A stretch of 39,565 nt of DNA from the sequence record MW722083.1; one strand, 5' to 3'. Below, in pieces: positions 166-31,032 of this stretch. The notes beneath the pieces were generated by a model, which saw only the letters and a program-made list of their open reading frames with translations, did no database searches and was not told the DNA's origin. The first letter of the stretch is position 1; the number at the start of each line of letters is the position of its first letter. The DNA comes from Escherichia phage vB_EcoP_ZX5. The translations under genes were made by a program, and so were the position numbers.

Positions 166-703
166 CAGGTTTGTTGTCTTCAGATTTCTTCTTGATGCTT
201 GGTTTTTGTCTAAGAACGAAAATACCAGCCACTGCAACAACTGTACCGATCACTGTGCCAGCTAGAACTTCATGACCTGTTAAACCTAATAATGTTGCAC
301 AAGCTACTGTAAAAATAGTTGCACTCAGGCCAAACCGCTGCCCACGTTTATCTCTATTAATAGCCCCGTCAAGTGCCTTTTCCTCCATTTTCTGGCGGTG
401 AGCAAACTCCTTCTCCGTCAGCTGGAAGATGCGTTCGGGGGCATCAGGTAAAATATCCTGATACCCGCGAAGCAGATAGGGGGGAGGAAGCGGACCCTGA
501 AACGCATGGTGAGCGACAACTATCTCCTGAATTTCAGGGCGATCAAGAACTCTTGTGAAGGCATCTGGGTGTTGAATGATCTCGTTACTTAGCCCTTCCT
601 CAACTTCCTCGAACTCAGTTTCTTCGTTATCACTTGGTTGCCCAATAGATTTTTGCATATTTGTCGAAGGACATTCCTTTAGCTTCTGGTTTTCCTCTTG
701 CAT
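155..703 (-). CDS. membrane protein, DUF2335-like (acidic N-terminus, GPLPPPYLLRGYQDILPDAPERI motif, two C-terminal TM helices)
   Basis: 182-aa ORF; SD-like AGGGAA upstream of ATG 703; motif recalled from DUF2335, not searched; start at internal Met 658 is possible. Confidence 0.55.
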   Translation of the reverse strand: MQEENQKLKECPSTNMQKSIGQPSDNEETEFEEVEEGLSNEIIQHPDAFTRVLDRPEIQEIVVAHHAFQGPLPPPYLLRGYQDILPDAPERIFQLTEKEFAHRQKMEEKALDGAINRDKRGQRFGLSATIFTVACATLLGLTGHEVLAGTVIGTVVAVAGIFVLRQKPSIKKKSEDNKPEEK

Positions 704-956
704 TTGAGTTTTTCCCTGTCACTATTGCCCATTTTCCGCCAGCAGGCGCTGCAATTTTTTTTCCGTTCTTTACTATATATTCAGCATAAACACGATTTTC
801 TGACCGTCTGAGATCGTCTCCGACCATATTCATGTCTCTTGATATAACTTTGACGACAGAGTCTCGGTTTAAAGCCTTGGCATAGTTGGAGCCAGGAACG
901 ATACCCAAAGGGGTGCCAGACTCTATAGCCAGCTCCTTGACATATCTTCTGCTCAT
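630..956 (-). CDS. small basic hypothetical protein, first gene of a two-gene cassette
   Basis: 108-aa ORF from ATG 956 with GAGG SD 5 nt upstream; the track's longer start at 971 is TTG; overlaps the downstream gene by 74 nt. Confidence 0.5.
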   Translation of the reverse strand: MSRRYVKELAIESGTPLGIVPGSNYAKALNRDSVVKVISRDMNMVGDDLRRSENRVYAEYIVKNGKKIAAPAGGKWAIVTGKNSNARGKPEAKGMSFDKYAKIYWATK

Positions 957-977
957 ATGAACCTCAACCAATCGACT

Positions 978-992
978 TTACCAATCGGGTAA
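978..992. promoter_or_regulatory. palindromic operator-like site TTACCAATCGGGTAA upstream of the 630..956 cassette
   Basis: perfect TTACC-N5-GGTAA match between ant stop and cassette start. Confidence 0.45.
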
Positions 993-1077
993 TTTTAAAC
1001 ATGAGTATAATGCTTTTAACTGCAACGAGTGTAAACAATTATTGATAATTGTAGGCACATCCATGTGCCGCCGCTCG

Positions 1078-1773
1078 TCAGAAGAACCCTGCTTTGTCGT
1101 TGATGTACTCCGCGTGCGTCTGGATATCACGCAGGCATTTGCTCACACCGACGATGTAGCAGAACATGGTGGTCAGCTCCGCCGCCGCGCCCGATACGTC
1201 GTGCCCGTCTTCCTGTAACTGGTTCAGCAGATTCATCAGCAGTGAGTTCTCCGTCAGGCCGAGAACACCAGACGGCGAATGAATCAGGCTGCGGTAGCCG
1301 GGCTTCAGCGGGGCGCTGTAGGTTTTGTTCTCTATCTTCATCGCCTGCATTACTGCTGACGCCGTGGCGTTGGCTACCTGGTCGGCAACCATCTTTATGC
1401 GTTCTTCCTGCGGGAGCGAGTTTTTAATGTAACTTCCGGTGCGGCGGATCTGAGGAAGAACCTCACCTGTAACCCATTTACGAAAGCGGTAGGGGATAGT
1501 GCCTGGTGTCACTGCGTCGCGGCAGCGGAGGATCAGTGTGTAGAGGCCTGACTCGGAGATGATGATCGATTCTTGCTCACCGCCAGGGGTGTCGGTTGAA
1601 GCGACGCCCTTCTCATCATCATCAAGTTTTCGAACAGCATCTCGATGGTTTGCTATGCCTATAGCCCGACAAACATCTGAAGCGATAAACCATGGCTCAC
1701 CATTAATGACGATTACCCGTATATCGGCTTGGGATTCGAAAGAAAAAATGGACGTGCTTTTTGTAGCTGTCAT
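1078..1773 (-). CDS. ant: antirepressor (Bro-N type N-terminal domain plus Ant-type C-terminal domain)
   Basis: 231-aa ORF; N-terminus FSFESQADIRVIVINGEPWFIASDVCRAIG resembles Bro-N; AAGGTAA SD before ATG 1773. Confidence 0.8.
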   Translation of the reverse strand: MTATKSTSIFSFESQADIRVIVINGEPWFIASDVCRAIGIANHRDAVRKLDDDEKGVASTDTPGGEQESIIISESGLYTLILRCRDAVTPGTIPYRFRKWVTGEVLPQIRRTGSYIKNSLPQEERIKMVADQVANATASAVMQAMKIENKTYSAPLKPGYRSLIHSPSGVLGLTENSLLMNLLNQLQEDGHDVSGAAAELTTMFCYIVGVSKCLRDIQTHAEYINDKAGFF

Positions 1774-1929
1774 AGTGGTTACCTTTTAGTCTGGTTAATC
1801 ACCACTACCGACGCCAATCGGTTGGTGGTGAACTGTGCAGGGTTGGCGTAACCGGCTAAAAGGACCCGGCGCACCTTTCGGTGCCCCCACACAGCCCACC
1901 ATAATACGAATGTGGCCGTGCTATACGCA

Positions 1930-1950
1930 TAAAAAAACCGCTTGCGCGGT
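1930..1950 (-). terminator. weak intrinsic terminator or attenuator between the Ant-C paralog and ant
   Basis: 5-bp stem ACCGC/GCGGT 1937-1941/1946-1950; A7 run 1930-1936 gives U-run on minus strand. Confidence 0.3.
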
Positions 1951-2042
1951 GAATGCGCCTTTTAGTAATCCGGGACGCCAATCCCGGCACTGGATTTTGC
2001 CAGTGCTCGATTACTATGGCACAAGAGGAGTGCGTTGTAAAT

Positions 2043-2057
2043 TTACCGCAAAGGTAA
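2043..2057. promoter_or_regulatory. palindromic operator-like site TTACCGCAAAGGTAA upstream of ant
   Basis: perfect TTACC-N5-GGTAA match; extended near-palindrome AAATTTACC...GGTAAATAT. Confidence 0.45.
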
Positions 2058-2088
2058 ATATAAGCACTCCATTTGGTGATTGCAAACC

Positions 2089-2346
2089 TTATCTGGTTTG
2101 TTTTCGTAATTGTTCGGCACAATAGTCGAGATGTGTTTGCAGATCCTGCATAGACATCTGTGAGCTGGTGACGTAGTTAATCAGTGCAGTCAGTTCGGCA
2201 AGTGGGCCATCGACATTAAATCCATCCTTATCGAGATCCCGGAGTAATTTCATCAAGTGCGATCCCTCCACCAGTGACCTGACGCCTCCCGGCGTGTGAA
2301 TCCTTTCGGTAAATCCGTCTTCCAGTGGATAGTGATACTGCTGCAT
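2089..2346 (-). CDS. small protein paralogous to the C-terminal ~70 aa of the antirepressor
   Basis: 85 aa from internal ATG 2346 with GGAG SD; aligns by eye with Ant C-terminus (LMKLLRDLDKDGFNVDGPLAELT vs LMNLLNQLQEDGHDVSGAAAELT; DLQTHLDY vs DIQTHAEY); the track's longer start at 2469 would put an operator site inside the coding region. Confidence 0.5.
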   Translation of the reverse strand: MQQYHYPLEDGFTERIHTPGGVRSLVEGSHLMKLLRDLDKDGFNVDGPLAELTALINYVTSSQMSMQDLQTHLDYCAEQLRKQTR

Positions 2347-2422
2347 CTTATCTTCTCCATGCAATAACTGTATATTTATACAGTAGCAAATAATTTGTTT
2401 GCTATCCAGCACGTTTTGCAAA

Positions 2423-2437
2423 TTACCTGAAAGGTAA
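2423..2437. promoter_or_regulatory. palindromic operator-like site TTACCTGAAAGGTAA in the divergent region before the tailspike gene
   Basis: perfect match; 17-mer TTACCTGAAAGGTAATA identical to the copy at 22756. Confidence 0.45.
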
Positions 2438-2466
2438 TATCTATTCGTATTTACAGCCTTTCTATC

Positions 2467-2490
2467 CATATGTGGTTTTTCAGGTAATAG
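2467..2490 (+). promoter_or_regulatory. conserved promoter-proximal element CATATGTGGTTTTTCAGGTAATAG upstream of the tailspike gene
   Basis: 19 of 24 positions identical to 22812..22835 upstream of the head operon. Confidence 0.4.
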
Positions 2491-2541
2491 AATAACCAGA
2501 TATGCGGCGCAACGGGTGCTGCGACTATCTGGAGATTTAAC

Positions 2542-5500
2542 ATGACGGTCTCAACCGAAGTTGACCACAACGAATACACCGGTAACGGCGTTACGACATC
2601 GTTTCCGTATACTTTTCGAATTTTCAGAAAATCAGACCTGGTTGTTCAGGTGTCTGACCTGAACGGGAACGTAACAGAATTGGTTCTGGATACCGGTTAT
2701 ACGGTAACTGGGGCGGGCACTTATAGTGGCGGTTCTGTGGTTCTTCCGTCTCCGCTTGCTACTGGATGGCGAATTACGATAGATCGTGTGCTTGATGTAG
2801 TGCAGGAGACAGACCTTCGCAATCAGGGAAAATTTTTCCCCGAAGTGCATGAAGATGCCTTTGACTACCTGACGATGCTGATCCAGCAATGTTTTGGGTG
2901 GTTCAGACGTGCATTGATGAAACCATCTTTGCTTGCAAAATATTACGATGCAAAGCAAAACAAAATTTCTAACCTTGCAGATCCATCATTTGAGCAGGAC
3001 GCTGTAAATAATCGCTCAATGCGTAATTATGTCGATGCTGCAATCGCCGGGGTTGTTGGTGGTTTTGGTTGGTTTATTCAGTATGGTTCTGGGGCTGTGT
3101 ACCGAACGTTCCAGGATAAAATGCGTGATGCTATTAGCCCCAAAGATTTTGGAGCTGTTGGTGATGGTATAAATGACGATTCCACTGCAATAAGCGCGTG
3201 CCTTGAAGCCTCATCTCCAGGTTATAAAATTGACGGATTAGGGCTTACTTTTAAAGTATCAACTCTTCCGGATGTCAGTCGATTTAAAAATGCTCGTTTT
3301 TTATTTGAGAGAATACCGGGCCAGCCTCTTTTTTATGCTTCTGAAGATTTTATCCAGGGAGAGTTATTTAAAATTACAGATACACCGTGGTACAACGCCT
3401 GGACGCAGGATAAAACGTTTGTATATGACAATGTCATCTATGCGCCTTTTATGGCTGGAGACCGCCATGGTGTAAATAACCTCCATGTTGCATGGGTTCG
3501 CTCAGGAGATGACGGGAAGACCTGGACAACGCCGGAATGGCTTACAGATTTACATGAAAACTATCCCACAGTTAACTATCACTGTATGAGTATGGGGGTT
3601 GTCAGAAATCGCCTTTTTGCTGTAATTGAGACGCGGACCGTGAGAGGAAATAAACTGCAGGTTGCAGAGTTGTGGGATCGCCCAATGAGTCGCAGCCTTC
3701 GCGTTTATGGTGGTATAACGAAAGCAGCAAATCAGCAAGTCGCTTATATTCGCATTACTGATCACGGATTATTTGCTGGTGATTTTGTCAACTTCTCAAA
3801 CTCTGGTGTTACAGGTGTTACCGGGAATATGACGGTGACTACTGTTATTGATAAAAATACTTTTACAGTTACGACGCAAAATACCCAGGATGTGGATCAG
3901 AATAACGAGGGTAGATACTGGAGTTTTGGTACATCATTTCACTCGTCACCATGGAGAAAAACCAGTCTTGGAACTATTCCTTCTTTTGTTGACGGAAGCA
4001 CTCCTGTTACTGAGATTCACAGTTTTGCGACGATTAGCGATAACAGTTTTGCTGTTGGCTACCATAATGGTGATATTGGTCCACGCGAGCTTGGGATACT
4101 CTATTTCTCTGATGCTTTCGGTTCTCCTGGTAGCTTTGTTCGCAGACGCATACCTGCAGAATATGAGGCGAATGCATCTGAGCCATGTGTAAAATATTAT
4201 GATGGCATTCTGTATCTGACGACCAGGGGGACATTAAGTACTCAACCCGGTAGTTCATTGCACAGAAGCTCTGATTTAGGTACATCATGGAATTCTCTTC
4301 GCTTCCCAAATAATGTTCATCACTCAAACCTTCCTTTTGCCAAAGTTGGCGATGAGCTGATTATTTTTGGCAGTGAGCGCGCATTTGGTGAGTGGGAAGG
4401 AGGAGAACCTGATAACCGTTATGCAGGAAATTATCCAAGAACATTTATGACCAGAGTTAACGTCAATGAGTGGAGTCTGGATAATGTAGAGTGGGTTAAT
4501 GTTACTGATCAGATTTATCAGGGCGGAATAGTTAACTCTGCGGTTGGTGTTGGTTCAGTTTGTATCAAAGACAACTGGCTGTACTACATTTTCGGTGGGG
4601 AAGACTTTCTAAACCCATGGAGCATAGGGGATAACAACAGAAAATATCCTTATGTTCACGATGGTCACCCGGCTGATTTGTATTGTTTCAGGGTGAAAAT
4701 TAAACAGGAAGAATTTGTTTCAAGGGATTTTGTCTACGGAGCCACTCCTAACAGAACGCTTCCTACTTTTATGTCGACGTCAGGCGTGAGGACGGTTCCT
4801 GTACCCGTTGATTTCACAGATGATGTTGCCGTCCAGTCACTGACTGTCCATGCAGGTACATCAGGACAAGTTCGCGCGGAAGTCAAACTTGAGGGTAATT
4901 ACGCCATTATTGCGAAGAAAGTACCGTCTGATGATGTTACCGCTCAGAGATTAATCGTTAGCGGCGGTGAAACAACGTCTTCAGCAGATGGTGCAATGAT
5001 AACGTTGCATGGTTCCGGAAGCAGTACTCCACGTCGCGCGGTATATAACGCACTCGAACATCTTTTTGAGAACGGAGATGTTAAACCTTATCTTGATAAT
5101 GTAAATGCTCTTGGTGGTCCGGGAAACAGGTTCTCGACAGTTTATCTTGGCTCCAATCCTGTGGTTACCAGTGACGGAACATTAAAGACAGAGCCGGTCT
5201 CTCCTGACGAAGCATTGCTGGATGCCTGGGGTGACGTCAGGTATATCGCTTATAAATGGCTGAACGCTGTCGCTATAAAGGGGGAAGAAGGGGCGAGGAT
5301 ACATCATGGTGTAATCGCGCAGCAACTTCGTGATGTTCTTATTTCTCACGGACTCATGGAAGAAGAAAGCACAACATGCCGCTATGCCTTTCTTTGCTAT
5401 GACGATTATCCCGCAGTATATGATGACGTCATTACTGGCCAAAGGGAAATGCCGCTGACTGATAATGACGGGAGCATCATTGTTGATGAGGATGATAATC

Positions 5501-5661
5501 CAGTGATGGTAATGGAAGACATCATTGAGCGCGTTGAAATAACGCCAGCAGGATCTAGATGGGGGGTCAGACCTGATCTCTTATTCTATATCGAGGCAGC
5601 ATGGCAGCGCAGAGAAATGGATAAGATAAAAGAGCGGATTCAGTCTCTGGAAGAACGTTAA
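2542..5661 (+). CDS. tailspike: T7 gp17-like N-terminal anchor, pectate-lyase-like beta-helix signature, C-terminal S74-type intramolecular chaperone domain
   Basis: 1039-aa ORF with GGAGA SD; N-terminus GNGVTTSFPYTFRIFRKSDLVVQV; central DFGAVGDGINDDSTAI motif; C-terminal chaperone-like block. Confidence 0.85.
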   Translation: MTVSTEVDHNEYTGNGVTTSFPYTFRIFRKSDLVVQVSDLNGNVTELVLDTGYTVTGAGTYSGGSVVLPSPLATGWRITIDRVLDVVQETDLRNQGKFFPEVHEDAFDYLTMLIQQCFGWFRRALMKPSLLAKYYDAKQNKISNLADPSFEQDAVNNRSMRNYVDAAIAGVVGGFGWFIQYGSGAVYRTFQDKMRDAISPKDFGAVGDGINDDSTAISACLEASSPGYKIDGLGLTFKVSTLPDVSRFKNARFLFERIPGQPLFYASEDFIQGELFKITDTPWYNAWTQDKTFVYDNVIYAPFMAGDRHGVNNLHVAWVRSGDDGKTWTTPEWLTDLHENYPTVNYHCMSMGVVRNRLFAVIETRTVRGNKLQVAELWDRPMSRSLRVYGGITKAANQQVAYIRITDHGLFAGDFVNFSNSGVTGVTGNMTVTTVIDKNTFTVTTQNTQDVDQNNEGRYWSFGTSFHSSPWRKTSLGTIPSFVDGSTPVTEIHSFATISDNSFAVGYHNGDIGPRELGILYFSDAFGSPGSFVRRRIPAEYEANASEPCVKYYDGILYLTTRGTLSTQPGSSLHRSSDLGTSWNSLRFPNNVHHSNLPFAKVGDELIIFGSERAFGEWEGGEPDNRYAGNYPRTFMTRVNVNEWSLDNVEWVNVTDQIYQGGIVNSAVGVGSVCIKDNWLYYIFGGEDFLNPWSIGDNNRKYPYVHDGHPADLYCFRVKIKQEEFVSRDFVYGATPNRTLPTFMSTSGVRTVPVPVDFTDDVAVQSLTVHAGTSGQVRAEVKLEGNYAIIAKKVPSDDVTAQRLIVSGGETTSSADGAMITLHGSGSSTPRRAVYNALEHLFENGDVKPYLDNVNALGGPGNRFSTVYLGSNPVVTSDGTLKTEPVSPDEALLDAWGDVRYIAYKWLNAVAIKGEEGARIHHGVIAQQLRDVLISHGLMEEESTTCRYAFLCYDDYPAVYDDVITGQREMPLTDNDGSIIVDEDDNPVMVMEDIIERVEITPAGSRWGVRPDLLFYIEAAWQRREMDKIKERIQSLEER

Positions 5662-5687
5662 AAAAAAGCCCGCAATATTTTGCGGGT
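5661..5687. terminator. hairpin just after the tailspike stop (terminator-like; U-tract better on minus strand)
   Basis: 7-bp stem 5669-5675/5680-5686, loop TATT, preceded by A7. Confidence 0.4.
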
Positions 5688-5967
5688 ATCAAAAACGGAG
5701 TTGGTGAAAAGTTATCTTTGAATTCTATCATGAATCAGTACGTATTTTAAATACATGTTCAGGTTTATTACACCATAGCATTATTAAATACAAAATTAAG
5801 TCTATGGTTCCTGTACAACTGCCCCCACTCTGCTGGCTCGTTCTGTAAAATCATTAGTACTTTTATTGAGATATATGATATGGAACAATAATGATTCATA
5901 TATGGTTTACTATGCGGGTTTAGTCATCAATAATTGACTGGCTTATAGATAGTAAACAGGAGAAAGT

Positions 5968-6667: not shown

Positions 6668-7286
6668 ACAATTCCAGCGAGCTGCTGGTATCAGCGAGGC
6701 ACTGGCCGCACGCTGGTTCTCGCATATAACTTCTGCGATGAAAGAGTTTGGTATCAGCAAAGCAGAAGATCAGGCAATGTTTATTGCTCAAGTCGGGCAT
6801 GAGTCTGGGGGCTTCACCAGGTTGCAGGAGAATTTCAACTACAGTGTCAGCGGACTGGCTAACTTCGTTCGGGCTGGGCGTCTCACTCAGGGGCAGGCTA
6901 ATGCACTGGGGCGCCGTGCTGGTGAACCACCATTGCCACTTGAGCGCCAGCGCGCGATCGCAAATCTGGTATACAGCAAACGCATGGGGAACAATGCCCC
7001 TGGTGATGGCTGGAATTACCGAGGGCGCGGACTTATCCAGATTACCGGTTTGAATAACTATCGTGATTGCGGAAACGGTCTGAAGGTTGACCTGCTGGAG
7101 AGCCCTGAACTGCTGGCGCAGGACGGATATGCGGCTCGTAGCGCGGCGTGGTTCTTCGCCAGCAAAGGATGCATGAAGTATACCGGCGATATTGCACGTG
7201 TAACTCTGATTATCAATGGTGGCCGGAACGGCATCGACGACCGGCGAGCGCGGTACATCACTGCCAGTAAGGTGCTGGCGGTATGA
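6657..7286 (+). CDS. endolysin, glycoside hydrolase family 19 (chitinase-like) type
   Basis: 209 aa from ATG 6657 with GAGGT SD; motifs [12 protein letters not shown] and [12 protein letters not shown]; the track start 6492 is an unsupported 5' extension. Confidence 0.85.
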
Positions 7287-7765
7287 TCTGGGCATTCGTA
7301 AAAGCATACTGGAAACAGTTTCTTATCGTGGCAGTGCTTGCTGTTCTGGTCATATCAGGAGTGGTTGCCTGGAATATACACGGCAGTCGCCAGTACGATG
7401 CCGGGTATGCTCAGGCGGAAGAAGACCGCAAAGCCGAAGAAGACAAAGTTCGTCAGTACTACGAACAGGAGAAAGTGACCAATGAACGTGAAGCTCAGCA
7501 GAGGATCGACCAGGCGAGCAATGATGCTCTTGATGCTGCCGCTAGCGCTGGCCGGTTGCAGCAACAACTCTTTGCCATCCGTGAGCAGCTCAGGCAGTAT
7601 AACGCCATTGTCGGCGCTGGGTCGTCAGCCGCAGACACCGGAGTTTTGCTTGCCGACGTGCTCAGCAAATCTCTCGAGAGAAACAGACAACTGGCAGAGT
7701 ATGCTGACCGGGCAGCCGAAGCAGGAAGAGTCTGCGAAAAACAGTACGACACTTTGACCAGATAG
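7283..7765 (+). CDS. i-spanin (Rz-like), N-terminal TM plus coiled coil
   Basis: ATGA overlap with endolysin stop; N-terminal [20 protein letters not shown], charged periplasmic coiled coil. Confidence 0.75.
7521..7757 (+). CDS. o-spanin (Rz1-like lipoprotein) nested in the +1 frame of the i-spanin gene
   Basis: [13 protein letters not shown] lipobox, Pro-rich, wholly embedded in 7283..7765. Confidence 0.7.
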   Translation: MMLLMLPLALAGCSNNSLPSVSSSGSITPLSALGRQPQTPEFCLPTCSANLSRETDNWQSMLTGQPKQEESAKNSTTL

Positions 7766-7936
7766 CATGGCATTTTTCATGGTACTGATTTCCGGTGACG
7801 GTATATAAAACGGTACGGAAAAAATTGAGATTTGGAAAAATGTTATCACTCAATTGGTTATGGTTATCGTAAATAATTGAGTGGGAATGATTAACAGCTA
7901 ACTCATAGCAACTCATTCCTATTCAGATACTAATTT

Positions 7937-8082: not shown

Positions 8083-9333
8083 GTGCTTACCGATACAAAA
8101 TTAAAAAACCTCAAGCCGCAGGACAAACTGTACAAGGTCTCCGATCGTGACGGGCTGTATGTAGCTGTGCTTACGTCAGGTACGGTCTCGTTTCGCTATG
8201 ACTACCGTATCAACGGTCGCCGCGAAACACTGGTAATCGGGCAGTATGGGCGTGACGGTATCAGTCTGGCAGAAGCGCGAGAAGAACTGATTGCTGCAAA
8301 GAAGCTGCTTAAAGCAGGCCAGTCACCGGCTGCGGCTAAACGTGACGGTATCAAAAAGATTCGTGGTGCTGAGACGTTTGCGGTACATACCGACAGTTAT
8401 ATGAAACACGTCATCCTGGCTGACAGTACCCGCGCAATGAAGCAGGCGGTGATCGACCGTGACATACTTCCTGTTCTTGGCAACAAAATGATGGCTGAAA
8501 TTACCACATCGATGGTTCGTGATTTGTGTGACCGGATTGTCGAACGCGGTGGTCGGGCAACAGCAGTGCAGGCCAGGGAGATCATCAGCAGCGTATACCG
8601 TCACGCCAATGACCGTGGTCATGGTTTGTTTAATCCTGCGGCTGACATTAAACCTTCGTCTATCGCCATATTTAAACCACGAGAGCGAACACTGACACCA
8701 GAAGAAATTGGCCTGTTCTTCCGCACGCTGGATGCCATTGGTGCTATGGGCACTATGAAAATGGCTTTAAAGCTGGTGCTTATCACTATGGTTCGTAAAG
8801 GCGAATTCACCAATGCAACGTGGGACGAAATAGATTTTAAAAAATGGACATGGACAATTCCTTCAGACCGCATGAAGGGAAGCCGGGCGCACGTTATTTA
8901 CCTGCCTAAACAGGCACAGGATATATTGGTCGGGTTGCAGATGTGCGCTGGTGGAAGTGAATATCTGGTTCCTGGTCGTTACAACTTCCGGAAGCCATTA
9001 TCTAATGCCGCGCTGAACTCTCTGATCGACAGAACGGTGAAAATAATAAATGAAGATGGTGAGCATATTCAGGACTTCACTGTACATGATATGCGCCGTA
9101 CAGCCAGTACGTTGTTGCATGAGGCTGGTTATCCTTCAGACTGGATTGAAAAGGCTCTGGCACATGAGCAGAAAGGTGTGCGCGCCGTATATAACAAAGC
9201 GGAATACGCCAGACAGCGCGCCTACATGTTGCAGCAGTGGGCCGATATGATTGATTCCTGGATTAACGGGGAGCATACGGATCTGATTCCGTTCTCCCCG
9301 TCGAAGTTTGAGAAGTGGATGGCGGGGGAATAA
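8083..9333 (+). CDS. int: tyrosine integrase, P4-type
   Basis: 416-aa ORF with GTG start; N-terminus LTDTKLKNLKPQDKLYKVSDRDGLYVAV typical of P4-like integrases; C-terminal HxxR...Y catalytic region. Confidence 0.85.
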   Translation: MLTDTKLKNLKPQDKLYKVSDRDGLYVAVLTSGTVSFRYDYRINGRRETLVIGQYGRDGISLAEAREELIAAKKLLKAGQSPAAAKRDGIKKIRGAETFAVHTDSYMKHVILADSTRAMKQAVIDRDILPVLGNKMMAEITTSMVRDLCDRIVERGGRATAVQAREIISSVYRHANDRGHGLFNPAADIKPSSIAIFKPRERTLTPEEIGLFFRTLDAIGAMGTMKMALKLVLITMVRKGEFTNATWDEIDFKKWTWTIPSDRMKGSRAHVIYLPKQAQDILVGLQMCAGGSEYLVPGRYNFRKPLSNAALNSLIDRTVKIINEDGEHIQDFTVHDMRRTASTLLHEAGYPSDWIEKALAHEQKGVRAVYNKAEYARQRAYMLQQWADMIDSWINGEHTDLIPFSPSKFEKWMAGE

Positions 9334-14299: not shown

Positions 14300-14512
14300 T
14301 TGAAGATAGTAACCAGAATGGAGGCCGCAAAAGCCGGGTTAAATCGCTATTTCACAGGAAAGCGGTGCCGTCACGGCCATCTCTCTGAAAGGTATGTTCT
14401 GAACGGAACATGTGTTGAATGTGCAATGAATAGCGCCAACCGCCATCGTAATGAATTTGCTTGTGCACTAAAGAGTGCAAGAGGGGAAACCTATGGCAAG
14501 CAGCTGGATTAA
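14300..14512 (+). CDS. small Cys/His-rich (zinc-ribbon-like) protein
   Basis: CRHGH...CVEC motif; start uncertain (TTG 14300 with AAGGGG SD, or ATG 14318). Confidence 0.4.
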   Translation: MKIVTRMEAAKAGLNRYFTGKRCRHGHLSERYVLNGTCVECAMNSANRHRNEFACALKSARGETYGKQLD

Positions 14513-15323
14513 GGTTGAAGTTATCACTCCTGATAAACCTGAAATTTTTCAGATAGCAGAAATTCTGGGTATTGATCCAGATGCTGTTCTTGGAAAGCTG
14601 GTTCGTATATGGGCATGGGCTGACCAGCAAACAATAGACGGTAACGCTGGCAGCGTTACAAAAGGAGTACTTGATAGACTCGCTTTTATTACAGGATTTG
14701 CTGACGCCCTCATTAGCGTCGGATGGCTTGCTTATCATGACGGCAAACTAATTCTTCCAAACTTTGAGCGACATAATGGAGAATCATCGAAAAAACGTGC
14801 ACTTACGAATAGAAGAGTGGCAGAGCATCGAAAACGAGTAACGCAAAAAGTAACGCCAACAGCGTTACAAAAGGAGTTACCAGAGGAAGAGGAAGAGGAA
14901 GATATATATAAAACCCCACACATAGCGCACGTGCGCGAGGGTGCTCCGACTAGTGAAGCGAACAGTACGCCGTTGCAGGTGGCAGAACCTGAATTTCTGG
15001 ATGGCCTGAGTGAACCCATCGGGAAATTTCCGATGACAGATGGCTGGCTACCGTCGCCAGATTTTCGGCGGCGTGCTGCGCTGTGGGGAACGGCCCTGCC
15101 GGAACCGGAATTTACACCTGCTGAACTTGCTGCATTCCGGGATTACTGGATGGCTGAGGGCAAAGTGTTCACGCAGGTTCAGTGGGAACAAAAATTCGCC
15201 AGGCACGTAAATCATATCAGGGGAAAATCAAAAAATGCCGGGAAAAGCGATGAGCTTGACTGGAATAACACTGACTGGATAGAAGGGGTGTGGGATGAAA
15301 TCAACTCCAGAACTTCTCAATGA
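14493..15323 (+). CDS. replication initiator (lambda O-like by position)
   Basis: 276 aa from ATG 14493 with GAGGGG SD; acidic linker (EEEEEE) overlying a repeat block; directly upstream of the P-like gene. Confidence 0.55.
   Translation: MASSWIKVEVITPDKPEIFQIAEILGIDPDAVLGKLVRIWAWADQQTIDGNAGSVTKGVLDRLAFITGFADALISVGWLAYHDGKLILPNFERHNGESSKKRALTNRRVAEHRKRVTQKVTPTALQKELPEEEEEEDIYKTPHIAHVREGAPTSEANSTPLQVAEPEFLDGLSEPIGKFPMTDGWLPSPDFRRRAALWGTALPEPEFTPAELAAFRDYWMAEGKVFTQVQWEQKFARHVNHIRGKSKNAGKSDELDWNNTDWIEGVWDEINSRTSQ
14838..14936. other. candidate origin of replication inside the O-like gene
   Basis: GTAACGC x2 at 14838 and 14850 plus inverted GCGTTAC 14862; (GAGGAA)3 14883-14900; AT-rich GATATATATAAAA 14901-14913; palindrome GCGCACGTGCGC 14925-14936. 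Confidence 0.35.
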
Positions 15324-22356: not shown

Positions 22357-22433
22357 TGGCGTGGCATGCAGGATTCGAACCTGCGACCAACCGCTTAGAA
22401 GGCGGTTGCTCTGTCCAGCTGAGCTAATGCCAC
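22357..22433 (-). tRNA. tRNA-Arg (anticodon UCU), CCA encoded
   Basis: 77 nt; acceptor GTGGCAT/ATGCCAC, D-arm GCTC...GAGC, anticodon arm ACCGC-CTTCTAA-GCGGT, T-arm GCAGG-TTCGAAT-CCTGC, discriminator G, CCA. Confidence 0.85.
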
Positions 22434-27632: not shown

Positions 27633-27956
27633 ATGGAACTCGTAAACCTCAAAACCGGCACTGACAGCTACCAGGATGAGAGCGGAGAAACCAGAACTCG
27701 CGATGAATACCCGTGGGGGCTGTGCATCACTCTTAATAACGACACATTGAATAAGCTGAAGGCGCAACCTCAGGGCGTCGGAACAGAAGTGATGATAACT
27801 GCAAAAGCTGTTATTCGAGGCCTGTCTGCCAGAGAAACTGACGATGGTGTTAATCGCAGCGCCGATCTGCAGATCACTGATATGGCGATCGCTCCTGTTT
27901 CCGGGGATGTAGAAAAATCAGCGGCTGAAACCCTGTACGGCAATGGGGGTGAGTAA
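27633..27956 (+). CDS. hypothetical structural protein
   Basis: 107 aa; AGGAG SD; TAATG overlap with the next gene. Confidence 0.45.
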   Translation: MELVNLKTGTDSYQDESGETRTRDEYPWGLCITLNNDTLNKLKAQPQGVGTEVMITAKAVIRGLSARETDDGVNRSADLQITDMAIAPVSGDVEKSAAETLYGNGGE

Positions 27957-28561
27957 TGGCCTCTGTAGTAGAGATCTGCAATCGTGCGCTGTCCAATATT
28001 GGCAACAGCCGCAGTATTAACAGCCTGACGGAAGCCAGCAAGGAAGCGGGGGAATGTTCGCTGCACTTTGAGGCCTGCCGTGATGCTGTGCTTTCTGATT
28101 TTGACTGGAACTTTGCTACCAAACGCGTGGCGCTTGCAGATACGAGCAATCCACCGCCTGACTGGGAATATGCGTATCAGTACCCGTCCGATTGTCTGCG
28201 CATTACTGAAATTATGCTTCCTGGTGTACGCAATCCAACAGCAGCAATGCGCGTTCAGTACGAAGTTGGTGCAGACACCAACGGAACAGGAAAGTTGATC
28301 TACACAGACCAGCCGCAGGCATGGCTCAAGTATGTCTCTCGCGTTTCAGATGTGAACATGTTTGATGCCATTTTTATGGAGGCGTTGGCCTGGCGTCTTG
28401 CGGCAGCTATTAACATGGCGCTGACTGGGAATGCAGACCTCGGTACGTTTGCCCTCAATATGTACAATCGCGTGATTCTTAGTGCTGGCTCGCATAGCCA
28501 GAATGAATCACAGGAACCACTGCCACCGGTTGACGAGTTTACCATTGCGAGGTTGTCCTGA
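27956..28561 (+). CDS. tail tubular protein A (T7 gp11-like)
   Basis: 201 aa; N-terminal pattern parallels T7 gp11 as recalled; precedes the gp12-like gene. Confidence 0.65.
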   Translation: MASVVEICNRALSNIGNSRSINSLTEASKEAGECSLHFEACRDAVLSDFDWNFATKRVALADTSNPPPDWEYAYQYPSDCLRITEIMLPGVRNPTAAMRVQYEVGADTNGTGKLIYTDQPQAWLKYVSRVSDVNMFDAIFMEALAWRLAAAINMALTGNADLGTFALNMYNRVILSAGSHSQNESQEPLPPVDEFTIARLS

Positions 28562-31032
28562 TGGCTATCAGTTGGATCCAGCCCAGCTTTGCAGGTGGTG
28601 AGATTGGACCGTCGTTGTACGGTCGTATTGACATGGCGAAGTACCAGGTGGCATTGCGCAAGTGCGATAACTTTATCGTGCGGCAGTATGGCGGAGTTGA
28701 GAATCGACCTGGTACGCGTTTTGTCGGTGCCGCCAAATACCCAAATCGGAAATGCCGCCTGATCCCGTTCCAGTTCTCGACGGTTCAGACTTATGCTCTG
28801 GAGTTCGGACACCAGTACATGCGCGTTATCAAAGATGGTGCGTTGGTGCTGAACAGCAGCAATGTTATTTATGAAATTTCCACGCCATATACTGAAACCG
28901 ATCTGTTCCGAATTAAATTCACGCAAAGCGCAGACGTGCTTACGCTGGTTCATCCGGCATACCCGCCGAAAGAGTTGCGCCGCTATGCGCATGACAACTG
29001 GCAACTGGTTGATGTGGTAACGAAGAACGGGCCATTTGAAGATATCAATATTGACGAGTCAGTGACGGTTTATGCCAGCGCCAGCACCGGGACAATTACG
29101 CTAACGGCAAGCGCCTCTATTTTTGGCGCGGAGCAGGTAGGCAAATTGTTCTATCTGGAACAGCCTGCAGTGGATTCTGTGCCGGTATGGGAAACCAGTA
29201 AGAGTACGTCGATTGGCGATATTCGCCGAGCAGACAGTAACTACTATCGCGCCGTTAAAGCAGGCAAAACAGGTACTTTGCGCCCTTCGCATACAGAAGG
29301 CACATCATGGGATGGCTGGGGCGGATCCGGTGATGATGATACTGGCATTGAGTGGGAATATCTGCACAGTGGTTTTGGCATTGCCCGTATCACTGCTGCA
29401 AATGGAACTACTGCAACTGCCGAGGTGATTTCCTATATCCCTTCGCAGGTAGTTGGCGAGGATAATGCCAGCTATAAATGGGCTAAATATGCCTGGAACA
29501 GTGTTAATGGTTATCCTGGCACTGTTGTTTATTATCAACAACGTCTTTACTTCGCCGCATCGACTGCGTTTCCTCAGACTATCTGGGCCAGCCGTACCGG
29601 GGATTATAAGGATTTTGGCAAAAGCAATCCTACGCAGGATGACGACAGAATTATCTACACCTATGCCGGGCGTCAGGTTAATGAGATCCGCCACCTGATT
29701 GATGTTGGTTCGCTGGTGGCGCTGACTTCCGGAGGTGAGTACGTCATCACTGGCGACCAGAACAAAGTGCTTACCCCATCATCATTTGCATTCAGCTCTC
29801 AGGGATCAAATGGCTCGAGCAATGTCCCACCAATTGCCGTGGCGAATATTGCTCTGTTCGTCCAGGAGAAAGGCAGTGTTGTCCGTGATCTGGCCTACTC
29901 ATTCGATGTTGACGGCTATCAGGGGAACGACCTGACCATCCTTGCCAATCATCTTTTTCAGAAGCACAGTATTGTTGACTGGTGCTTCTCTATTGTCCCT
30001 TACTCCAGCGCCTTCTGCATTCGTGATGACGGTAAATTACTGGTGATGACCTATTTGCGTGATCAGCAGGTTTTTGCATGGGCACCACAGTCCAGTACCG
30101 GAAAATATGAAAGCACATGCAGTATCAGCGAAGGAAATGAAGATGCGGTGTATTTCGTCGTTAACCGAACCGTTAACGGGCAAACAGTGAGATACATCGA
30201 GCGACTGTCCAGCCGTTTATTTACCAGCGATGAAGATGCTTTCTTTGTTGATTCTGGCCTTAGCTATGATGGAAGAAATACGTCTGACAGAACGATGACC
30301 ATCACTGGTGGTTCTGGTGAATGGGATTACCGCGCGGAATATACAATCAGTGTTTCTGGTGGTGCGTACTTCACCAGTAGTGATGTCGGCGCGCAACTAC
30401 AGTTCCCTTATACCGGAACTGATCCTGATACTGGTGATGAGGTGTCAAAAGAATTACGTTGCGACATTATTTCTGTAACCAGCAATACCGCTGTAGTGGT
30501 TCGTGCTAACAGGAACGTCCCGCCATCCCTCAGGAATGTGGCCACCACGAACTGGCAGATGGCGCGCCGGACATTTGGAGGCCTGTCTCATCTTGAAGGC
30601 CAGACCGTAAACATTCTCTCTGATGCGAACGTGGAACCACAGAAAGTGGTTTCCGGAGGTGCCGTCACGCTGGAATCTCCGGGGGCTGTAGTTCACATCG
30701 GCCTGCCAATAACTGCTGAATTCGAAACACTGGATATCAACATTAACGGACAGGAAACGCTGCTGGACAAAAAACAGGTGATCCCGTCCGTTACTCTGGT
30801 TGTGAATGCCAGCCGCGGCATCTGGGCGACTACGCCCGGCGGTAAATGGTACGAATATCCACAGCGTGAATTCGAGTTCTACGATGATCCTGTTGATGAT
30901 GCTACCGGAAAAGTAGAAGTGAAACTGGACAGTAACTGGGGCAAAAACGGACGTGTAAAAATCCGTCAGCTTGACCCGTTGCCGCTGTCTGTTCTTGCCG
31001 TTATTCCTCGCCTTACTGTTGGGGGATTCTGA
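28561..31032 (+). CDS. tail tubular protein B (T7 gp12-like)
   Basis: 823 aa; size, position and N-terminal pattern resemble T7 gp12 as recalled. Confidence 0.7.
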   Translation: MAISWIQPSFAGGEIGPSLYGRIDMAKYQVALRKCDNFIVRQYGGVENRPGTRFVGAAKYPNRKCRLIPFQFSTVQTYALEFGHQYMRVIKDGALVLNSSNVIYEISTPYTETDLFRIKFTQSADVLTLVHPAYPPKELRRYAHDNWQLVDVVTKNGPFEDINIDESVTVYASASTGTITLTASASIFGAEQVGKLFYLEQPAVDSVPVWETSKSTSIGDIRRADSNYYRAVKAGKTGTLRPSHTEGTSWDGWGGSGDDDTGIEWEYLHSGFGIARITAANGTTATAEVISYIPSQVVGEDNASYKWAKYAWNSVNGYPGTVVYYQQRLYFAASTAFPQTIWASRTGDYKDFGKSNPTQDDDRIIYTYAGRQVNEIRHLIDVGSLVALTSGGEYVITGDQNKVLTPSSFAFSSQGSNGSSNVPPIAVANIALFVQEKGSVVRDLAYSFDVDGYQGNDLTILANHLFQKHSIVDWCFSIVPYSSAFCIRDDGKLLVMTYLRDQQVFAWAPQSSTGKYESTCSISEGNEDAVYFVVNRTVNGQTVRYIERLSSRLFTSDEDAFFVDSGLSYDGRNTSDRTMTITGGSGEWDYRAEYTISVSGGAYFTSSDVGAQLQFPYTGTDPDTGDEVSKELRCDIISVTSNTAVVVRANRNVPPSLRNVATTNWQMARRTFGGLSHLEGQTVNILSDANVEPQKVVSGGAVTLESPGAVVHIGLPITAEFETLDININGQETLLDKKQVIPSVTLVVNASRGIWATTPGGKWYEYPQREFEFYDDPVDDATGKVEVKLDSNWGKNGRVKIRQLDPLPLSVLAVIPRLTVGGF

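Follow-up and report, generated by a model that had tools for sequence, protein, structure and literature searches.

The ORF7 tailspike of Escherichia phage vB_EcoP_ZX5, a mosaic of an epsilon15-type virion anchor and a CUS-3-like endosialidase-chaperone cassette

The 39,565-nt stretch of DNA from Escherichia phage vB_EcoP_ZX5 (MW722083) analysed here (the window; all position numbers are window coordinates) contains a tailspike gene, open reading frame 7 (ORF7), which is a single frame from ATG (2542) to TAA (5661) on the plus strand and encodes a precursor of 1039 amino acids (aa) with a computed mass of ~115.7 kDa. As judged from sequence comparison, ORF7 is a mosaic of a Uetakevirus anchor and a near-CUS-3 cassette for endosialidase and intramolecular chaperone, which met at a joint marked by a DFGAxGDG motif. 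We are highly confident that ORF7, acting through the mechanism proposed below, is the single receptor-binding and receptor-destroying tailspike of ZX5, a temperate epsilon15-like podovirus.

ZX5 was reported as a temperate Uetakevirus phage with a genome of 39,565 bp (Li et al. 2022, PMC9782041); it was spontaneously induced and isolated as a plaque former, and its host, strain YO1, is of serotype O87:H52:K1 (PMC9782041). The same gene was described in that paper as having a T7-like tail-fibre N-terminus, an endosialidase middle part and an endosialidase intramolecular chaperone at the C-terminus; mosaic breakpoints, residue mapping and an enzyme assay are not part of it (PMC9782041).

The centre of ORF7 is a predicted GH58 endosialidase, comprising an N-terminal extension, a six-bladed propeller with an inserted beta-barrel, and a stalk (Table 1). 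The propeller profile (PF12217) was matched over its full length (positions 1-367) with 772.6 bits (cutoff, 24), and aa 205-876 aligned end to end, without large gaps, to the crystal structures of the phage K1F endosialidase endoNF (1v0e and 3gvl; 1047 bits, ~70% identity). The N-terminal extension aligned with the endoNF crystal chains from residue 2/6, and the stalk alignment reached the last residue of the mature chains. The inserted beta-barrel is a polysialic-acid binding domain in endoNF, and the two Asp-boxes found in ORF7 are typical of sialidase propellers.

The original prediction had read this centre, from a DFGAxGDG signature, as a beta-helix depolymerase of the pectate-lyase-like type; the rival weighed here is such an enzyme with a right-handed helix and a new specificity. 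The string occurs once, as DFGAVGDG (aa 202-209), where the endosialidase N-terminal extension begins, and a weak match to the beta-helix profile PF12708 (E 0.036) was obtained at this site; further, in Orf6 of phage phiv142-3, a relative of the anchor donor, the same motif leads into a genuine PF12708 beta-helix (E 1.3e-11), which explains the misreading. In ORF7, however, the match to PF12708 reached 14.3 bits against a cutoff of 27 and covered 21 residues only (aa 201-221; profile positions 5-25 of 213), so that a beta-helix was rejected by Pfam even at permissive E-values. Because the Pfam endosialidase domains and the endoNF structures cover aa 205-876, the centre is read as an endosialidase propeller and not as a beta-helix, and with the high identity to endoNF and the two Asp-boxes we give practically no credence to a beta-helix centre; the motif itself marks no beta-helix here.

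All three residues of the endoNF active-site triad (Glu581, Arg596 and Arg647; PMC2955717) are conserved in ORF7 in a global alignment to K1F gp17, as is endoNF His350 (His309 in ORF7). In blastn, window positions 3240-5632 (gene nt 699-3091) were 99.46% identical to siaK1 of phage CUS-3 (13 mismatches in 2393 nt), and the proteins have six aa differences over aa 229-1025; siaK1 is annotated in the CUS-3 record with direct-assay evidence of endo-alpha-sialidase activity. ORF7 is predicted to hydrolyse alpha-2,8-polysialic acid because of this nucleotide identity and because of the K1 host of ZX5. The receptor-binding centre had been expected to be the part most likely to be novel; with so few differences from the CUS-3 endosialidase, its K1 polysialic-acid specificity is instead the best-known part of the protein.

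The assignment of the last ~150 aa to an S74-type intramolecular chaperone was borne out, with an actual length of 163 aa. The Peptidase_S74 profile (PF13884) was matched at aa 877-937 with 41.4 bits (cutoff, 22; E 1.7e-10), and aa 757-1038 aligned to the endoNF stalk-plus-chaperone construct 3gw6 (E 1.3e-93). The Ser-Lys pair that had been proposed as a check of this domain was also found: the stalk/chaperone boundary reads NPVVT/S877-DGTL-K882 in ORF7 and NPIVT/S911-NGER-K916 in endoNF, each with Ser and Lys five residues apart. This pair is the catalytic dyad of self-cleavage in phage endosialidases (PMC3742443). Cleavage at the boundary would give products of 97.1 and 18.7 kDa (computed).

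An alternative is that ORF7 is a degenerate prophage copy, i.e. a non-hydrolytic polysialic-acid binder or a spike that has lost the cleavage of its chaperone. Many copies of the gene are carried by prophages of K1 lysogens, and there the selection for lytic function could be relaxed; in some genomes the copies are truncated or interrupted by insertion sequences (IS). In the window, however, the frame is intact and has kept the Glu/Arg/Arg triad, His309 and the Ser/Lys dyad, and the protein is separated from the active CUS-3 enzyme by no more than the six differences given above; moreover, ZX5 arose by spontaneous induction and forms plaques on a K1 host. We therefore consider a degenerate copy very improbable, and an active, self-cleaving endosialidase is preferred.

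The N-terminal module (aa 1-199) belongs, by its sequence relatives, to the epsilon15 gp20/Uetakevirus family of virion anchors and not to Pfam family PF03906 (Phage_T7_tail). In tblastn, it was 71.5% identical to the epsilon15 tailspike across aa 1-165 and 64-70% identical to the tailspikes of phiV10, SPN1S and TL-2011b (68-72% for the group of epsilon15, phiV10 and SPN1S), with remoter relatives in Pseudomonas, Xanthomonas, Bordetella (BPP-1-like) and Pelagibacter podoviruses; T7-like phages were absent among the 140 tblastn matches. Its closest solved homolog is the fibre of the marine podovirus Carin-1 (28lx/8ck1, E 1e-35), Dpo31, whose domain D1, a beta-sandwich of residues 8-87, connects the spike with the base of the virion (PMC13317679). 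The original prediction of a particle-binding domain in the N-terminal ~130 aa had thus located a genuine conserved phage anchor, and its boundary is to be moved to aa ~199.

The likeness to T7 gp17 that had been part of this prediction holds at the level of the fold and not at that of the sequence. The score for PF03906 (15.9 bits) was below the gathering score (25.2 bits), BLASTP against gp17 gave one local match of 22 residues (aa 134-155 vs gp17 128-149; E 0.043), and hhalign of a profile of 28 anchor sequences against an alignment of T7 and K1F (two sequences only on the T7 side) gave a colinear match (18-156 vs 17-154) with a probability of 3%. An AlphaFold2 model of the anchor was built on the same 28-sequence alignment and compared with the PDB using Foldseek. 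The best match was the N-terminus of the Carin-1 fibre (8ck1_B; E 1.3e-11, 48% identity over 125 positions), followed by fibre anchors in the tail complexes of LME-1, PhiM1, Kp7, Kp9 and T7; the T7 gp17 N-terminus was matched as 7boz_a (E 6.2e-5, TMt 0.50) and as 7ey7_a (TMt 0.59). The best 23 matches, and 24 of the top 25, were N-terminal anchors of podovirus fibres or spikes; 9ukm_A (rank 24) is unrelated, and Ig-like folds ranked lower.

The anchor could, conversely, be unrelated to T7 gp17, the likeness being that of generic beta-sandwiches, with a docking more like that of the P22 head-binding domain. The weak sequence link to gp17 in all three comparisons speaks for this, as do the Foldseek alignments with their large root-mean-square deviations and TM-scores of ~0.35-0.6. 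On the other hand, almost all of the top fold matches are podovirus anchors, gp17 included, with generic Ig-like folds far below; the weak sequence matches are colinear and at equivalent positions; and ZX5 encodes homologs of the tail adaptor and the tail nozzle as well as a core protein of the T7 gp14 family. An unrelated anchor is, on balance, unlikely, and the reading that the module shares the gp17-type anchor fold and may work like such an anchor is supported at the fold level. The adaptor and nozzle gave no direct sequence match to the T7 gp11 and gp12 families. The anchor model, the adaptor and the nozzle all match the Carin-1 assembly 8ck1, and for this reason the adaptor and the nozzle are the probable docking partners of the anchor.

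A protein of Kluyvera cryocrescens (P0010, 277 aa) is 80% identical to the ZX5 anchor over all 204 aa and carries PF12218, which hints that the pairing of an epsilon15-type anchor with an endosialidase also occurs outside Escherichia.

The two sources of ORF7 can be separated at the nucleotide level. Window positions 2342-3137 (gene nt -199 to 596) were 98.0% identical in blastn to the Orf6 region of the Uetakevirus phiv142-3, and the near-identity to CUS-3 siaK1 sets in at position 3240. The 102 nt between these matches (the joint) match neither phiv142-3 nor CUS-3 at the DNA level; when the phage collection was searched by distant blastn for a donor of the joint, only two fragments of the same gene (Phi05_2388 B and Phi05_1999 B, unannotated) and short matches at the level of the motif came up. 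Also for positions 5633-5967, i.e. the last 29 nt of the gene (from nt 3092) plus the 3' flank, no donor was found in the phage collection by distant blastn. The anchor of Uetakevirus has been equated with residues 1-205 of the phiV10 receptor-binding protein (PMC10408124), which agrees with the breakpoint in ORF7. The joint contains the DFGAxGDG motif, and the motif marks the end of the anchor in three proteins, as DFGAVGDG in ZX5, DFGAKGDG in phiv142-3 and GWGAIGDG in CUS-3. The orphan joint points to a third parent or to a hotspot that has diverged locally.

A tentative extension, which we regard as possible though rather doubtful, is that the DFGAxGDGxxDD segment is a shared joint at which epsilon15-type or P22-type anchors are spliced to beta-helix or endosialidase cassettes, and that the ZX5 spike arose by exchange between an epsilon15-like and a CUS-3-like prophage in one K1 cell. 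Such an exchange would fit because many K1 genomes hold two copies of the module and because the motif is located at the breakpoint in phiv142-3, CUS-3 and ZX5. That the joint matches neither parent, with no donor found, counts against a simple two-parent event.

Among 5426 complete E. coli genomes, the endosialidase module was found at 263 places in 194 genomes, and hence many K1 strains hold two copies of it. Full-length copies of ORF7 (identical, or ~99.8% or more) are present in a total of 72 complete E. coli genomes, and K1 pathotype genomes are represented among them, e.g. APEC O1 (99.9% identical), CE10 (O7:K1; 99.8% identical) and O1:K1:H7 strains. In E. coli F11 the gene is 100% identical and annotated as 'endosialidase catalytic beta-propeller domain-containing protein', and the APEC O1 copy is located within an epsilon15-like prophage, beside yfgI and in the guaA region. 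Copies of the CUS-3 type (P22-like) and of the ZX5 type (epsilon15-like) were found at different loci in at least three genomes, NZ_CP006830.1 (APEC O18), NZ_CM128670.1 (EC69) and NC_017646.1 (CE10); a cell in which two unrelated prophages both encode this receptor-destroying enzyme would be an obvious setting for a module swap.

Damaged copies of the endosialidase tailspike gene were also observed in some K1 genomes, e.g. in FY26 (NZ_CP101741.1, 539161-542866); one is broken by an IS3-family transposase, and of others only the C-terminal S74 part is left, an indication that the gene is decaying in some prophages.

A mechanism can be proposed by homology, with endoNF, CUS-3 and Carin-1 as precedents for its steps. 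ORF7 would be made as the 115.7-kDa precursor and would then trimerise, with the S74 chaperone (aa 877-1039) nucleating or templating the folding of the trimeric stalk. The chaperone would remove itself by a Ser877/Lys882-catalysed cut of the Thr876-Ser877 bond, to leave a mature spike of 97 kDa and a fragment of 18.7 kDa. Through its N-terminal anchor, made of a beta-sandwich and helices (aa 1 to ~199), the trimer would dock on the adaptor and nozzle of the short tail. The propeller (Glu547/Arg562/Arg613), together with the polysialic-acid binding regions of barrel and stalk, would bind and cleave the alpha-2,8-polysialic acid of the K1 capsule; as a result, the virion could tunnel to the outer membrane, and the host range would be limited to K1 strains.

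Some observations weigh against this account. The position of endoNF Gln853 is occupied by Met819 in ORF7 in the global alignment; Gln853 belongs, together with Arg837 and Ser848, to the stalk polysialic-acid binding site of endoNF. The anchor model is confident for aa 8-85 only and continues thereafter as low-confidence helices. The last 14 aa of ORF7 and the 34-aa joint are unlike CUS-3. Finally, no biochemical or genetic test of the ORF7 protein was found in the literature, where the description of the gene is a domain annotation only (PMC9782041).

The positions of the features are collected in Table 1. Upstream of ORF7, no convincing sigma-70 promoter was found: all matches to the consensus were 9/12, and 15 were counted vs ~7 expected in shuffled sequence. 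Downstream, a GC-rich hairpin is preceded by an A-run and has a T-run on the minus strand only, with no minus-strand gene downstream; since the T-run is restricted to the minus strand, the role of the hairpin on the plus strand is uncertain, a canonical terminator is not claimed, and a plus-strand intrinsic terminator after ORF7 was set aside. The GC content of the window is 48.99%. For the ZX5 genome, a GC content of 49.00%, an attP 190 bp before the integrase, and a tRNA at 14482-14558 were published (PMC9782041). Adding 7875 to the published tRNA coordinates gives 22357-22433, from which it follows that they were counted from the attP core; the published ORF numbering, in contrast, follows the origin of the window, and the order of the ORFs in the window is as published, with ORF4 as anti-repressor, ORF7 as tail protein and ORF12 as integrase (PMC9782041).

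Just upstream of the tailspike gene lies a small, divergent ORF (2089-2469, minus strand), whose product is paralogous to the C-terminal half of ORF4, the BRO-N anti-repressor (1078-1773, minus strand; 42% identity over 74 aa, E 3e-15); in the RefSeq record of APEC O1, its counterpart is annotated only as a 258-nt version. The lysis cassette ends with a DUF2514 gene (7283-7765, plus strand), and wholly inside this gene, in another frame, lies a lipoprotein-like ORF with a lipobox (7482-7757, plus strand; start MNVKL). The pair looks like an i-spanin/o-spanin pair (Rz/Rz1-type); in APEC O1 only the outer gene is annotated.

Table 1. Features of the ORF7 tailspike gene and associated elements in the window (start and end in window coordinates)
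Feature	Position	Strand	Basis or remark
Tailspike gene ORF7	2542..5661	+	ORF list; PHROG 1171 'tail spike protein' across full length
Shine-Dalgarno GGAG	2531..2534	+	7 nt before ORF7 ATG; read from sequence
Virion-anchor module, epsilon15 gp20/Uetakevirus type, aa 1-199	2542..3138	+	Sequence identity to phiv142-3, epsilon15
Anchor beta-sandwich core, aa 8-85	2563..2796	+	AlphaFold2 pLDDT 85-91; Foldseek
Recombination joint, aa 200-233, 102 nt (gene nt ~597-698)	3139..3240	+	blastn breakpoints; contains DFGAVGDG (3145-3168)
Endosialidase N-terminal extension, aa 205-271	3154..3354	+	Pfam PF12218 (End_N_terminal), E 5.9e-32
Predicted catalytic six-bladed beta-propeller, aa 272-721	3355..4704	+	Pfam PF12217 (End_beta_propel), E 6.5e-233
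Asp-box SGDDGKTW, aa 321-328	3502-3525	+	Located in sequence
Beta-barrel inserted in propeller, aa 383-465	3688..3936	+	Pfam PF12195 (End_beta_barrel), E 3.2e-46
Glu547 (endoNF catalytic Glu581)	4180..4182	+	Global alignment to K1F gp17
Arg562 (endoNF Arg596)	4225..4227	+	Global alignment to K1F gp17
Asp-box SSDLGTSW, aa 576-583	4267-4290	+	Located in sequence
Arg613 (endoNF Arg647)	4378..4380	+	Global alignment to K1F gp17
Trimeric stalk domain, aa 722-876, ending GSNPVVT876	4705..5169	+	Pfam PF12219 (End_tail_spike), E 8.4e-78
Intramolecular chaperone / peptidase S74, aa 877-1039, 18.7 kDa	5170..5658	+	Pfam PF13884; PDB 3gw6
Ser877 (endoNF Ser911)	5170-5172	+	Global alignment to K1F gp17
Lys882 (endoNF Lys916)	5185-5187	+	Global alignment to K1F gp17
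GC-rich hairpin CCCGCAA-TATT-TTGCGGG	5669..5686		8 nt past ORF7 stop; possible transcript end or stabiliser
attP core ATTGAGTGGGAATGATT	7876-7892		191 bp before integrase start at 8083
tRNA-Arg(TCT), 77 nt	22357-22433	-	
Tail adaptor ('connector', gp11-like)	27956..28558	+	8ck1_E Carin-1 connector E 1.5e-26; PHROG 394, 9239 'tail tubular protein'
Tail nozzle (gp12-like)	28561..31029	+	8ck1_A Carin-1 tail nozzle E 1.2e-217; PHROG 376

ORF7, its three-domain architecture and the K1 host were already known, and the finding is real but ordinary; what is mildly new is limited to the precise breakpoints, the 102-nt orphan joint and the frequency with which K1 genomes hold the endosialidase module twice. 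The gene is a clean textbook example of tailspike modularity, and the mapped boundaries of anchor and catalytic part could guide swaps of receptor-binding domains. It also calls for caution, in that a beta-helix depolymerase cannot be identified by DFGAxGDG alone. That K1 pathogens often harbour two endosialidase prophages at once may merit a look at the population level.

Among the closest known systems is CUS-3, a P22-like prophage (Lederbergvirus) of E. coli K1 RS218, which like ZX5 is a temperate K1 podovirus and has a near-identical cassette. The N-terminus of the CUS-3 spike is a P22-type head-binding domain (aa 1 to ~169), whereas that of ORF7 is an epsilon15-type anchor, and downstream of the spike gene neuO is found in CUS-3 and holin genes in ZX5. 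Domain order and fold of ORF7 are the same as in K1F endoNF (gp17; 1v0e, 3gvl and 3gw6), with identities of 57% in the extension, 70% (69.9%) in propeller plus barrel, 57% in the stalk, 54% in the chaperone and ~20% in the N-terminal part, and with an insertion of seven residues (~aa 481-487) in ZX5 and CUS-3 relative to endoNF. K1F is a lytic T7-like phage whose spike, unlike ORF7, has a true Pfam T7 gp17 tail-fibre domain at its N-terminus.

The tailspikes of epsilon15 (gp20), phiV10 and phiv142-3 have an ORF7-like anchor and are likewise encoded with the anti-repressor region on one side and the lysis cassette on the other; their receptor-binding parts, however, are O-antigen-specific beta-helix enzymes (PF12708 in phiv142-3) without an S74 chaperone, and not endosialidases. 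Carin-1 offers the closest solved homologs of the anchor and also of the adaptor and the nozzle, and its Dpo31 also sheds a C-terminal domain of 18 kDa; it differs from ORF7 in its catalytic domain and in the polysaccharide of its host. The endosialidases of CUS-3 (P22 N-terminus), K1F (T7 N-terminus) and K1E/K1-5 (adapter protein) are the standard example of module exchange among tailspikes (PMC5380687). To the T7-type (K1F), the P22-type (CUS-3) and the separate adapter (K1E/K1-5), ZX5 would add the epsilon15-type as a further virion attachment for the endosialidase-chaperone cassette.

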